Shown here one piece after another: positions 18,796-54,845 of a stretch of DNA of 64,000 nucleotides (its first letter is position 1; each line of letters starts with the position of its first letter). Under the pieces are notes generated by a model. The model was not told the DNA's origin and ran no database searches. It was given only the letters and a program-made list of their open reading frames with translations. The position numbers and the translations under genes are program-made. The DNA comes from Candidatus Shapirobacteria bacterium (GTDB lineage: Bacteria > Patescibacteriota > Microgenomatia > UBA12405). Where the stretch lies: positions 140,906 through 204,905 of the forward strand of contig JBAZYN010000002.1 in the NCBI GenBank assembly GCA_041659325.1. Direction: 5' to 3'.

Positions 18796-18840
18796 CAAAA
18801 TCTACCCCTATCCCCTCCTTTGAAGAAAGGAGGGGAACAA
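18796..18840. repeat. palindromic element (P8), intergenic
   Basis: aaatctacccctatCCCCTCCTTTGAAGAAAGGAGGGGaacaag, near-identical to P6. Confidence 0.8.
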
Positions 18841-19005
18841 GAAGATGACGTTATTACGTTTTTTTCACGTTCTTACGTATTCCAAACCTAAGCATCTATG
18901 ATGTAATGACAAATAAACTTGTTAATAACCGCATATATACCGAAATATTACCGCAACACGCTTTTTGGGAACTAATGTGGAGAAAATTGATTTAGAATAT
19001 TAACT

Positions 19006-22000
19006 ATGAATTCGTCGGGGCCAGTGGCAATAGTTTATGGAATAGAAAAATTTGGAGCGAAGTTTTTGGTAAAGGAATTGCTGCTTAAAGATATATATGT
19101 GGTAGGAGTGGGAGAATATGTGTCGGGGATAGAGGAAAATGATAATTTTAGGTGGGTGGCGGGGAGAGGGGATTATGAGGGGAAGGTGAATTATGTTTTT
19201 GATTTTGAGGGAGATAAAAATATTTTTGATTTAGTTTTGAAGAACTCGGCTAAATTAACAGAGATATGCATTAACGACCAAAAAAAAGCGGAAAGAATAA
19301 AAAACGACTTGATTGGGGCGAATATTAACTGGAGGCTAATAGATGCACGGGGGGTGTATGGCCCGGGGATGGCAGATGATGGGGGAGGGAGGACCGGAAT
19401 TAATTTTTTAGTTGAGGCGGTGTCGGGGGCGGTGAAGAATGAAAATTTGGTTTTGCCGGCTTTGGGAACAAAGTTCAGGTTGTTGAATATTGTGGATTTG
19501 ACCGAAGTGGTTTTGAGGGCAAGCTTTTTATCGGGAACCGAGAAGGAGGAATATGTGATATTTGGCAATGAGAGTGACTCGGGGGAAGTAGCAAAGGTGT
19601 TGATTGATGAGGCAAAGATGACTAAGTTTAAGGTGGTCCAGAAGGATTATAAGTTTGAGACTCCAGGTAAGTATGAGATAGAAGAGAACTGGAGAAAATT
19701 ACGATGGCATCCCGGGGTGGAATTTAGAGAGGGAGTGGTGGAAACTTTGCAGTATTTTTTTTCGGTAATTGATGAAGAAAGCAGGAAAAAAATGAAAGAG
19801 GGGTCGAAAGCCAATAAGTCCAAAAGTCTGAAAGTCCAAAAGTCTGAAAGTCAGAAAATAAAAAAGGAGAAGAATTTATCGAGGTTTGAGGTGATGGTGG
19901 AGGAGGAAAAAACCAATTACGAATTACCAATTACCCACCCCGGCGGGCAGGCGAATTACGAATTAGAAAAAGATAAAAAAGAGACGGTAAGAAAGAATGA
20001 GGTGAGTAGGGAGGCAGAAGAAAGGAAAGCAGAAAAATACAAAAAGGAAATAGAGGAAGAATTTAAAAGGGCAAAAGAGAAAGAAGAGGAAAAAAAGGCG
20101 AAGGAGGAGATAATTTATAGTGAAGAGATTAAATCTTTGGCAAAACAATATACCCAAACCACACCACTGGAGAGAGATGAAGTGATAGAAGAGGACGAGG
20201 AAAGGATAGAGATAAAAAACGAGCTAAAAGACGGGCCTGCCCGCCTCGGTGGGTTAATCGGCAGGCAGGTTGAAAGTAGTAAAACGAGAGAAAAAAAAGG
20301 CGGGACAGGAATAATAAACTTTAAAAAGATCGGATTTTTGGTGATGATTATTTTGGGGTTGGGGATGTTTTCGATTCCGGTCGGGTGGGGGATAAAGGTG
20401 GTGGCCGGGATTAAAAATATCTCTAAAATCAGGGAATATATTGAGGAAGAAAAATACGCTGAGGCTGACAAAAAAGCAGAGACGACGATTGCCGGTTTGA
20501 AAAAAATCGACAACCAGATCGATGATTGGGGGCTAAATAGGATGAAGACTTTTAGGAATTTACAGACTGGGCTAAAGGTAGAGGAGGGAGTGTTGGTGAT
20601 TGAGAAAAAGGCGATTCCGATAGCGGAAGCAATGGAAAAAGTTAGCGGGGCGATTTTTGATGATAAAGAGATTTCCTGGGAAAGTGAACTTGAAGTTCTA
20701 AATAAAGGCATGGTGGAGGTTGATACTGAGATTGGGTTGCTGCAGGCTAGGCTTAATGGTGACTGGAACTGGTTGCCAGCCCGATTCCGACCGGAAGTGC
20801 AGAAGGGGATTAAAAGCTTAAACATGGCCAGATCGGTAATAGGAACTTCAAGGAAGGGACTGAATATCTTGAAAGAGTTTTTGGGAAGTGACGGAAAAAG
20901 GAGAGAATACCTGGTACTGTTTCAAAACGAAAATGAGCTTCGGGCAGGCGGAGGGTTTATCGGGTCGTGGGGGATGCTGAGTTTTGAGGGGGGAAAACTG
21001 CTTAACCTGGATATAAGGGACGTTTATGAGGCAGACGGACAGTTGAAAGGCCATGTTGAACCGCCGGCGGAAATTAAACAGTACCTGGGGGAGGCGGGGT
21101 GGTTTTTGAGAGATTCTAACTGGAAGGTGGATTTTGTGGATGCCAATAAGGATATTGAGTGGTTTTTGGAGAAGGAGACGGGAAGAAAGGTGGATGGGGT
21201 GATAGGGATTAATTTGGCGGTGGCCAAGGCGATACTGGATGTTACCGGGCCGATCTACGTGGTTGATTTTGGTGAAAAAATAGGTAAAGACAACCTATAT
21301 GAACAAGCTCAATTTTATGCAGAAAATAAGTTTTTCCCCGGCTCTAAACAGAAGGCTAGCTTTTTGGGGGGACTGGGAAGACAGTTGTTTGAAGAAATCA
21401 GGAATTTGGATTCGAAAAAGATGCTGGAGCTATATCTCCAAATATTAGAGCAGTTTGATAAAAACGAAATCCAACTGGTAATGCATGAAAAGCAGGCGGC
21501 GAAAATTGCGGCAGATTTGGGGTGGGACGGGGCGATATACCAGGGAAAGTGCCTGACTGACCGGTGTTATGCCGATTATTTGTATTTGTCAGAATCTAAC
21601 TTTGGAGTGAACAAGGCCAATTATTATATATACAGAGGGATTGAGCAGACGGTTGATATTACCCAAATGGCCATCAGCAGGGTGCTGAAAATTAACTACG
21701 AGAACACGGCGAAAAATAAAAGTTGGCCGGGTGGGGATTATAAAAATTATTTGAGGGTTTATATACCACAAGATACGAATCTGGCGGAGGTGAGTATTTC
21801 GGATTCGGCACAACCAGGAAAGAAATCGGTGGTGGGGGCAGGGGAGATGAAGATATCACAAATTTATAATAAAAAAGAAATAGGATTTTTAGTGCCGGTA
21901 CCGGTGGGGCAGAAAAGAACTGTAGAGATTAGATACGTAAGTAAAATTGATTTGGGGATAAAGGATAAATTCTCGTACCTTGGGTATATCCAGAAACAGT

Positions 22001-53396: not shown

Positions 53397-53471
53397 GGTT
53401 TCACCTGAGGCCCTAGAAACGAAGAAAAGCAATGTAATCAGTAAACAGTAACCTGTAATTGGTAAAATAAA
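53397..53471 (+). promoter_or_regulatory. conserved ~75-nt upstream leader (copy 2, before radA), containing GTAATNN array G5
   Basis: ggtttcacctgaggccctagaaacgaagaaaagcaatgtaatcagtaaacagtaacctgtaattggtaaaataaaggg. Confidence 0.6.
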
Positions 53472-53474
53472 GGG

Positions 53475-54845
53475 ATGAAAAAAACGAACGAAGTGGTTTT
53501 TGTATGTTCAAATTGTGGGAATGAGTTTGGAAAGTGGAGCGGACAGTGTTCGGCCTGTGGGGAGTGGAATACGCTGAAAGAAGTCAAAAGTCTAAAAGTC
53601 GAAAGTCGAAAGGGAAAAAGATTAAATCAAAAAAGAGAAAGGACACAGGTTGTAAATTTGGGAAAATTAAATCTACCCCTAGCCCCTCCTTTGACGAAAG
53701 GAGGGGAAGGTATTTATATATCTGCGGGAATATCCGAATTTGATAGAGTTTTGGGTAAAGGATTTGTGCGGGGACAAGTAATACTTTTTGCCGGCGAGCC
53801 AGGGATAGGTAAAAGTACGCTTTTGACCCAATTGATGGGAAATGTTTCGGGGTTATATGTGGCCGGGGAGGAGTCGGCAGAACAAATAGCACTAAGAGTG
53901 GAGAGATTACGGCTGGATACGAAAAAGTTTGATATTTTGGAAACTAATTCAGCAGATGAAGTGATTGAGTTTCTGGAACGAGCAAAAAATGTATACAAAA
54001 TAGTGGTGGTCGACTCGATTCAGGTAATGCTGACGGAGGGAGCGGCCTCGGTGGCGGGCAGCCCCGGACAAATTAAGGAAGTAACCTTCAGATTGGTGGA
54101 GGTGGCCAAGAAATTGGGGGTGACTATTATAATAGTAGGACATGTGACCAAGGAGGGGGATATTGCCGGACCAAAAATGCTCGAGCACATGGTGGACACG
54201 GTGTTGTATTTTGAAGGAGACAAAAATTCAGAGCTGAGAATTTTGCGGGTGACTAAAAATAGATTTGGGCCGACGGATGAGGTGGGGGTGTTTAAAATGG
54301 AAGAAAGAGGATTGAGGGAAATTCGAAGTGATGAGATTAATCTGGTGTCGGGGGGTGGGGCGGCGAAAATCGGATCAGCGGTGACAGTGATAATGGAGGG
54401 GACCCGGCCGATATTGGTAGAAATACAAGCATTGGTGGTGGAAAGTTTTGCGCCCATGCCGAAAAGAGTATTTTCGGGAATTGATTATAACCGGGGACAA
54501 TTGTTGATTGCGGTGGCGCAAAAGATTTTGGCGATGCCACTTTATAAATATGATGTGTTTGTATCAGTAACAGGGGGGATTAAGATAGATGATACAGGTT
54601 CTGATATAGCGATATTGGCGGCAATGTGGAGTAGTTATAAAAATCTACCACTAAAACGAAATCCCTCCTCTAATCCTCCCTTTGACAAGGGAGGACGGGG
54701 GGCACTAGTTTTTATTGGAGAAGTATCATTGTTGGGAGAGGTGAAGAAAGTGAGGAATTGGGAAAGAAGAATCAAAGAGGCAAAGAGTTTGGGGTGGGAG
54801 GCGGGGGAAGTAGATGGGGTAAGAGATTTAAAGCTTTTAGTTTAG
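53475..54845 (+). CDS. radA: DNA repair protein RadA/Sms with three in-frame repeat/palindrome inserts
   Basis: C4 zinc finger CSNCGNEFGKWSGQCSACGEW, Walker A GEPGIGKSTLL and RVTKNRFGPT (the KNRFG motif), plus a Lon-like C-terminal domain. The inserts are SLKVESRKGKR (53580-53612), PLAPPLTKGGEG (53668-53710) and KRNPSSNPPFDKGGRGA (54659-54702). Confidence 0.85.
   Translation: MKKTNEVVFVCSNCGNEFGKWSGQCSACGEWNTLKEVKSLKVESRKGKRLNQKRERTQVVNLGKLNLPLAPPLTKGGEGIYISAGISEFDRVLGKGFVRGQVILFAGEPGIGKSTLLTQLMGNVSGLYVAGEESAEQIALRVERLRLDTKKFDILETNSADEVIEFLERAKNVYKIVVVDSIQVMLTEGAASVAGSPGQIKEVTFRLVEVAKKLGVTIIIVGHVTKEGDIAGPKMLEHMVDTVLYFEGDKNSELRILRVTKNRFGPTDEVGVFKMEERGLREIRSDEINLVSGGGAAKIGSAVTVIMEGTRPILVEIQALVVESFAPMPKRVFSGIDYNRGQLLIAVAQKILAMPLYKYDVFVSVTGGIKIDDTGSDIAILAAMWSSYKNLPLKRNPSSNPPFDKGGRGALVFIGEVSLLGEVKKVRNWERRIKEAKSLGWEAGEVDGVRDLKLLV
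53580..53612. repeat. AGTCNNAA array (A7, in-frame in the radA zinc-finger/ATPase linker)
   Basis: agtcaaa agtctaaa agtcgaa agtcgaaa. Confidence 0.8.
53668..53710. repeat. palindromic element (P6), in-frame in radA
   Basis: aaatctacccctagCCCCTCCTTTGACGAAAGGAGGGGaagg. Confidence 0.8.
54659..54702. repeat. palindromic element (P7), in-frame in the radA Lon-like domain
   Basis: aatccctcctctaatCCTCCCTTTGACAAGGGAGGacgggggg. Confidence 0.8.

Follow-up and report, generated by a model that had tools for sequence, protein, structure and literature searches.

A 64,000-nt stretch of a Candidatus Shapirobacteria metagenome-assembled genome (Candidate Phyla Radiation (CPR)/Patescibacteria), here called the window, contains short C-rich hairpin repeats that lie between genes, in frame within genes and on both sides of a small DUF559 nuclease gene, an arrangement that raises the question of whether gene and repeats form one mobile system. 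Our best reading is that these repeats, built of a tag and a hairpin, are a widespread family whose cognate gene is a small DUF559 nuclease located between two inverted copies. We consider it probable that they make up a system like that of repetitive extragenic palindromic (REP) sequences and REP-associated tyrosine transposases (RAYT), with a Vsr-like PD-(D/E)XK nuclease as the partner instead of an HUH transposase. Observed directly are the repeat family, its polymorphic in-frame insertion, the insertion of the nuclease cassette, a pan-phylum association of DUF559 with hairpins, covariation of the stems and a strand bias. The literature on DUF559, on Vsr, REP and RAYT, and on Rickettsia palindromic elements (RPEs) and CPR yielded no earlier description of the DUF559–repeat link, which appears to be undescribed; in-frame insertion by palindromic repeats is already known. 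Comparison loci or contigs carry L-numbers and protein homologs P-numbers throughout.

We examined the DUF559 locus against syntenic relatives. The gene (22243–22659, minus strand) encodes a 138-residue Vsr-like PD-(D/E)XK protein assigned by Pfam (PF04480, E = 7e-27), in which residues D66, E77, D79 and H83 are conserved and invariant in 20 homologs. It is bracketed, as a preliminary description of this DNA had it, by inverted copies at 22245–22292 and 22671–22705. The whole inserted block (22159–22722, no strand assigned) extends from the DUF4012 stop to the RNHCP start and holds three element copies and the nuclease gene in the order degenerate long copy, long copy, DUF559 on the minus strand and inverted short copy. 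The degenerate long-form copy (22163–22232, plus strand) forms the left edge of the block and carries the tag AATCCCTCAC, a spacer hairpin TCCGGC..GCCGGA and a main hairpin broken by ~18 nt. The long-form copy (22245–22292, plus strand), on the 3′ side of DUF559, consists of AATCCCTCT, the mini-hairpin CGGCTTTGCCG and then the main hairpin, and its reverse complement encodes the last 14 residues of the DUF559 open reading frame (ORF), SLVKGRSGKAERD. Upstream of the DUF559 start codon, at a distance of 11 nt, lies the short-form copy (22671–22705, minus strand), inverted relative to 22245–22292; over 35 nt it is the exact reverse complement of two solo copies, those at 39980 and 49496. The window shares the gene order Polysacc_synt, DUF4012, RNHCP, FtsH, methyltransferase-like and DUF6909 with two relatives, L210 and L211, in both of which the DUF4012 stop overlaps the RNHCP start (ATGA) at the place where the window has ~560 nt. 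The block of gene and elements, earlier suspected to be a mobile cassette, is missing from both relatives, and because their empty sites contain no pre-existing repeat, the gene appears to have arrived together with its repeats at this locus. Judged by this sequence comparison, gene and flanking inverted copies together constitute a ~560-nt insertion. In a third relative (L209:130–258) the DUF4012/RNHCP junction holds a different insert of ~130 nt with no DUF559 and no hairpin element; insertions at this junction may therefore be recurrent.

DUF559 homologs elsewhere, whose flanks the preliminary description had proposed to check, have cognate hairpin elements in inverted orientation on both sides, at a level far above background. 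Nearly all of the best 120 homologs (58–90% identity) have element-encoded C-terminal tails, for example SLVKGRxxxxERD, SPPCQGRG, LACQGEV, LALSRGG and PLVKGG, and several of them also translate the upstream element at the N terminus. Four homologs on long contigs occupy four different, non-syntenic housekeeping neighbourhoods, each bracketed by inverted tag-plus-hairpin copies, and the stems around these four differ by genome with compensating changes. For a wider sample we scanned GTDB species genomes with DUF559 protein motifs alone and obtained 80 loci spanning Patescibacteria, Bacteroidota, cyanobacteria, Proteobacteria, Nitrospirota, Ignavibacteria and others. In 37 of 76 loci the gene flanks form a best inverted repeat above the 99th percentile of controls, 750 random same-length positions in the same loci. 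A perfect C-rich hairpin occurs within 230 nt upstream of the gene in 67 of the 80 loci, within 260 nt downstream in 44 and on both sides in 37, against a background of 1.47 hairpins per 10 kb that corresponds to ~0.036 expected per flank. The same repeat plan recurs across phyla, as in Pontibacter (TCCCCTCTTGAGAGGGG-TTAGGGGTGTGT) and Microcoleus (CCCCCCCTTCTTAAGGGGGG-TTAGGGGGGATC).

Repeat and gene also vary together. With the TIRF protein motif as its sole anchor, and hence based on gene homology, an alignment of 17 DUF559 3′ ends contains an 8-bp hairpin with double compensatory changes at five of its eight pairs; the reverse-complemented tag comes next. Two DUF559 paralogs on one Shapirobacteria contig, L013 and L015, have different repeat variants. 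In the 10 kb around DUF559 genes, exact cognate solo copies reach 0.26 per 10 kb compared with 0.02 for non-cognate cores, a 13-fold difference that, with small counts, gives weak support. The findings that the preliminary description had named as fatal to it did not appear: element peptides vary among orthologs, elements occur elsewhere and DUF559 genes co-occur with them. A consistent genomic partner in the form of a tag-plus-hairpin repeat gives DUF559 a concrete, testable function and substrate.

Within the window, a sequence check located all eight copies listed in the preliminary description, and reading the sequence beside the DUF559 cassette added the degenerate one at 22163–22232, missed by our detectors, for a total of nine. 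Folding reveals a common plan of an unpaired C-rich tag, an optional variable spacer mini-hairpin (present in the copies at 22163, 22245 and 40377, with variable sequence) and a main C-rich hairpin, which in the window copies has 8–11 bp, a C-rich 5′ arm and a 4-nt TGAC-type loop in a TTGACAA-like centre. Tags are of two types, A (AATCCCTCY) and B (AAATCTACCCCTA(T/G)). Across the family the tag reads (A)ATC..CCC..TA, a variable mini-hairpin may follow, and the hairpin has 8–12 bp, a C-rich 5′ arm and a TTGACAA-like centre. The hairpin CTCCCTTTGACAAGGGAG has exactly five matches in the window (22268+, 22675−, 39993+, 49509+ and 54676+) against 0.05 expected by chance, and the variant CCCCTCCTTTGAMGAAAGGAGGGG has two (18812 and 53683) against 0 expected. 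A strict detector of perfect C-rich hairpins recovered the eight listed copies and two unrelated hairpins, compared with 0.9 in shuffles, and a relaxed hairpin scan of the window found no further copies. MAFFT misaligned the tags of short and long forms for a covariance model, and we used explicit hairpin and tag scans instead. Two copies outside the cassette are intergenic: a B-type solo element (18796–18840, plus strand) with tag AAATCTACCCCTAT and an 11-bp hairpin (DNA fold −12.1 kcal/mol, z −4.9), located ~165 nt upstream of the DUF4012 gene, and a short-form solo copy (49495–49530, plus strand) between the 5S rRNA gene and an S1-domain gene. The latter is identical over 36 nt to a copy at 39979–40014, in line with the 35-nt identity reported earlier for 39979–40013 and 49496–49530.

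The four remaining copies, all on the plus strand, lie in frame within genes that Pfam identifies as RimK and RadA, and the peptides quoted for them in the preliminary description are correct. A RimK paralog (39521–40564) contains the short-form solo copy at 39979–40014, read as NPSKSPFDKGDL, and a long-form copy at 40377–40428 composed of a tag, a spacer hairpin CTCCAAC..GTTGGAG and the main hairpin TCCCCCTTTGAGGAAAGGGGGA. RadA contains a B-type copy in its linker (53668–53710, read as NLPLAPPLTKGGEG) and an A-type copy in its Lon-like domain (54660–54704, read as NPSSNPPFDKGGRGA). Ortholog alignment, proposed earlier as a check, identifies these peptides as insertions at sites that are empty in some relatives. 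Compared with the solved RadA of S. pneumoniae (5LKM), the Lon-domain copy is a clean 12-residue insert and the linker copy falls in a stretch unaligned with 5LKM. Among 120 RadA orthologs (61–75% identity), many have nothing inserted at the Lon site (between SSYKxxPL and GEVSLLGEV), the closest at 75% identity among them (P0122: KEKALKDK-MVWVGEV), and others have it filled with different element-like peptides (NPSFDKEG, PSLEKGG, TPPLKKGG and SPLKKGE), sometimes two of them; the linker site is likewise empty or variably filled. Measured against the 67%-identical P0361 and every distant homolog, the two RimK copies are insertions, and the homolog P0365 has a different element-like peptide at the second site. 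On this sequence evidence the element insertions are polymorphic among RadA and RimK relatives, present in some and absent in others, with host ORFs intact. The identical 35-mer is also found in frame on other CPR contigs, in the gene of a TatD-like hydrolase, which has three element copies, and in that of an FAD oxidoreductase, and some CPR copies of the 35-mer lie 3–15 nt upstream of start codons. The behaviour likened earlier to that of RPEs is therefore confirmed by the inserts in RadA, RimK and other CPR proteins. It is not a unique parallel to RPEs, because REPs inside genes, often repair genes, have been reported in several species outside Rickettsia (PMC3733652). Just before the RadA Lon-site element, at 54641–54652, stands a tag-like AAATCTACCACT read as KNLPL, and several orthologs (P0164, P0170) have NLPL at this site with no hairpin; the tag-like sequence may be a remnant or footprint of an older copy or a target-site preference.

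Solo copies far beyond the window reveal how widely the repeat is spread. The exact 18-nt hairpin matches at least 120 metagenome stretches; in the 80 such loci that we examined there are 93 exact matches, of which four (~4%) adjoin DUF559, and in both of the two loci that contain a DUF559 gene it lies between two inverted copies. The identical CPR 35-mer occurs in many unrelated CPR contexts among these matches. On high-GC contigs, of which many carry a human gut label, the long form runs GGAATCCCTCC, variable spacer hairpin, AC, main hairpin and GCTTT, and it often appears as inverted doublets ~115–120 nt apart (L089, L112, L132, L166 and L202). Doublets occur also in proteobacterial DUF559 loci; none is found among the window's solo copies. 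The element is present on 27 viral or prophage contigs, all without DUF559. On the metagenome or viral contigs L093, L114, L177, L208, L221 and L236 the 18-nt hairpin is inside a larger conserved unit (..CTTGCCGTCAATCCAC-hairpin-GCAAG..GGGATAG) that occurs twice per contig, 0.2–2 kb apart in direct orientation, and looks like a distinct family.

The copies share a strand. All seven solo copies of the window are on the plus strand, which is G-rich throughout, and the top strand is likewise the locally G-rich one in 11 of 11 CPR-type copies elsewhere, some of them antisense to the neighbouring gene, giving 18 of 18. This bias fits a single-strand hairpin substrate on the lagging-strand template. 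The GC skew at the window's dnaA locus is strongly positive on both sides (+0.20 to +0.47) with no inversion, and we therefore state the strand bias relative to the G-rich strand only. The locus is of origin type (11097–16113), with dnaN-dnaA on the minus strand and rnpA-yidC-jag on the plus strand, and has DnaA-box-like TTATCCACA inverted repeats at 12468–12497 and 13954–13983.

These observations suggest a mechanism with the logic of REP doublets forming hairpins (REPINs) and RAYT, carried out by an enzyme of unrelated fold. The unit of gene and inverted repeats would relocate between genomic sites, and the repeats would also spread on their own as far more numerous solo copies and doublets. 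From linkage, covariation and analogy we infer that DUF559 may be the mobilising enzyme, which would recognise tag and hairpin and nick there, so starting the copying of an element. As the strand bias is strict, the enzyme would probably recognise a hairpin that is extruded while the lagging-strand template is transiently single-stranded. The 35-mer is open in four of its six reading frames (NPSKSPFDKGD, IPLNLPLTRET, KSPLSKGDLEG and VSLVKGRFRGI), and because the CPR genome is also gene-dense, surviving copies would be expected between genes or in frame in tolerant surface loops and linkers, as in RadA, RimK, the TatD-like protein and others. A broader version of this proposal, tentative enough that our doubts slightly outweigh our confidence, is that tag-plus-hairpin repeats across bacteria would have their dedicated nuclease in the standalone DUF559 clade. 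This would make a second, independently evolved REPtron-type system with a Vsr-like PD-(D/E)XK fold, acting on lagging-strand-template hairpins and giving rise to in-frame Pro/Gly/Lys loops in CPR proteins. If the link between DUF559 and hairpins is causal, it would explain where lineage-specific protein insertions in ultra-small CPR genomes come from and why spurious peptide tails (PPFDKGG, SLVKGR) are annotated across phyla.

Several points weigh against a mobilising DUF559 nuclease. About 13 of the 80 DUF559 loci have no detectable upstream hairpin, and few exact cognate solo copies lie within 10 kb of a DUF559 gene. Elements do not all face the gene in the same way, as the tag is gene-distal in CPR and gene-proximal in Bacteroidota and cyanobacteria. 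A Shapirobacteria genome contains A-type solo copies, yet its one examined DUF559 gene has another repeat type (L102 versus L003). Comparison with the empty sites of L210 and L211 reveals no readable target-site duplication or defined junction, and the strand bias could partly be a gene-orientation effect. A RAYT or other enzyme encoded elsewhere in these genomes is possible. We know of no PD-(D/E)XK or Vsr-like enzyme that mobilises hairpin repeats, and a role of DUF559 in cutting or moving the elements is inferred from genomic arrangement.

The strongest competing explanation comes from the protein itself. To our knowledge no role has been assigned to DUF559, a very large family. Its sole sequence relative in the Protein Data Bank is 3HRL (E = 4.5e-17), an uncharacterised structural-genomics entry. 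An AlphaFold model of the window protein (predicted local distance difference test 78.6) is closest in Foldseek to 3HRL (template modelling (TM) score 0.85) and then to the catalytic domain of I-Bth0305I (3R3P, TM 0.81); further fold matches are Vsr, PvuRts1I/AbaSI and an R2 element, with 1CW0 among the Foldseek matches. The closest characterised fold is thus the catalytic domain of a homing endonuclease, and PHROGs returned weak matches to phage homing/HNH endonuclease families. DUF559 could on this evidence be a free-standing homing-type selfish gene that rides on or parasitises repeats moved by some other enzyme (for example a Y1/HUH RAYT-like one) or by recombination, an explanation that would also suit the ~4% of exact hairpin copies that adjoin DUF559, the viral and prophage contigs that carry the element without the gene, and the mismatch of repeat types in the genome of L102. 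We judge it unlikely. The empty sites of L210 and L211 are repeat-free and indicate that gene and repeats came together at this locus, the repeat subtype follows the DUF559 clade in both tails and stems, and RAYT and REP, too, typically have few gene-linked copies for many solo ones. Among the 48 window ORFs scanned there is no transposase, whether Y1_Tnp or other, and no intron or intein context was seen for DUF559. A role in a defence system was considered and rejected, the only matches being marginal ones to DpdF and methyl-directed REase domains with no system context.

Less probable still is that the hairpins are structural or regulatory motifs useful to the host (terminator-like, mRNA-stabilising or protein-binding), and that hairpins or cruciforms are processed by DUF559 as a repair-type nuclease. 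Extreme conservation of tag and hairpin extends from CPR (43% GC) to gut bacteria of more than 60% GC, the hairpin is often followed by GCTTT(T) in high-GC contigs in the manner of a terminator, several CPR copies stand just upstream of start codons and DUF559 is related to the repair enzyme Vsr. A host function of this kind is hard to reconcile, however, with the location of four of the nine window copies in coding sequence, where they are polymorphic among orthologs, with identical 35-mers in unrelated contexts, or with a DUF559 block that is itself inserted and non-syntenic among relatives. No C5-cytosine methyltransferase partner stands beside the gene, whose neighbours are the DUF4012 and RNHCP genes; the sole methyltransferase-like ORF nearby (25121–25696) has just a weak DOT1 match. 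Rfam contains no family for the element, either in the window at gathering thresholds or in four element-rich loci at E up to 1, and the only match, a miRNA-hairpin family on a doublet, was judged spurious. The loop TTGACA was considered as a −35 box for DUF559 and rejected: no sigma-70 promoter-like site is predicted in 22100–22800, and its spacing to TATAAT is wrong. That C-rich palindromes and Pro/Gly-rich loops arose independently, with no mobile family behind them, is very improbable, short and compositionally simple as the elements are, since it is contradicted by the five and two exact hairpin matches against 0.05 and 0 expected, by identical copies of 35–36 nt and by an architecture of tag, spacer hairpin and main hairpin common to hundreds of copies.

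The window contains further repeats and gene clusters. A second dispersed repeat forms tracts of the 8-nt unit AAAGTCNR at 19807–19882, 39231–39298, 44915–44966, 45668–45703, 49642–49733, 50815–50850 and 53577–53627; some tracts are within ORFs (the 5′ end of the S1 gene, the RadA linker and the DUF4012 protein), where three units equal eight codons and read as Lys/Ser/Val-rich sequence. Intergenic tracts of the 7-nt unit GTAATCN stand upstream of several genes (14022–14079, 14551–14642, 18589–18632, 51849–51883 and 53430–53468), and an 88-nt segment, 89% identical between 51812–51899 and 53397–53484, precedes a PMT_2-like gene and radA; these tracts and the segment may be shared promoter or leader modules. 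The rRNA region (44338–49423) has an unusual layout: it encodes tRNA-Ile and tRNA-Ala, then the 23S gene (45077–47994), with no 16S gene upstream of it in the window, and a LAGLIDADG_2 endonuclease ORF (48075–48659, E = 3e-42) lies between 23S and 5S (49307–49423). Type IV secretion system (T4SS) genes at 3718–6231 and 33589–35939 include a TraG/VirB4-like ATPase and four tandem T4SS-pilin paralogs on the minus strand. At 55652–63091 a tandem series of three or four paralogs encodes large proteins of secreted type, two with dockerin domains, which share internal repeats of 230–300 nt at 64–82% identity, and a 24/27-nt tandem repeat array (42946–43350) lies inside ORF 41837–44302.

The DUF559 cassette and its repeats can be compared with several known systems. 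With I-Bth0305I (EDxHD, Vsr-like fold) and Vsr the protein shares its predicted nuclease-core fold (TM 0.81 to 3R3P). It differs from them as a minimal protein of ~125 amino acids whose gene is bracketed by hairpin repeats, outside any intron or intein context and with no adjacent Dcm-type methyltransferase. Like miniature inverted-repeat transposable elements and small insertion sequences, the 461-bp unit at 22245–22705 has inverted ends and one gene, and short non-autonomous derivatives are dispersed. In contrast to those elements, no DDE or other known transposase and no target-site duplication was seen in the window unit, and the dispersed copies are single ends of tag and hairpin instead of two-ended miniatures. 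RPEs resemble these repeats as palindromes that lie in frame in protein genes, are read as short loops and are polymorphic among relatives. They are ~100–150 bp long and specific to Rickettsia, and we know of no enzyme associated with them, whereas the elements here, compared with RPEs by description only, measure 35–70 nt, occur in unrelated phyla and are linked to a nuclease gene.

The closest likeness is to REP/REPIN–RAYT systems, or REPtrons. In both, short hairpin repeats have a conserved tag at one end, the nuclease gene lies between two inverted copies (here in the window, in the four homolog loci and in 37 of 76 loci of the wider sample), several diverged paralogs of the gene can coexist in a genome, each with a repeat variant of its own, the gene is far outnumbered by solo copies and by inverted doublets, which here occur in high-GC metagenome and proteobacterial DUF559 loci, a single-strand hairpin substrate would suit the strand bias, and some copies are within repair genes (PMC3733652). 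There are also differences: the REP tag is a GTAG or CGTC tetranucleotide at one end of the palindrome (PMC3733652), whereas the tag here is (A)ATC..CCC..TA; an optional variable spacer hairpin is present; a large share of CPR copies lie in frame in genes; the hosts include CPR, Bacteroidota, cyanobacteria and gut Firmicutes-like contigs; and the enzyme is a DUF559/Vsr-like PD-(D/E)XK protein and not a Y1 HUH transposase. Membership of the REP/RAYT class thus fails on the defining enzyme and on the tag. If the link between DUF559 and the repeats is causal, REP/RAYT would not be the sole means that bacteria or their parasites have come upon for dispersing hairpin repeats, and PD-(D/E)XK nucleases would join HUH enzymes as their mobilisers.

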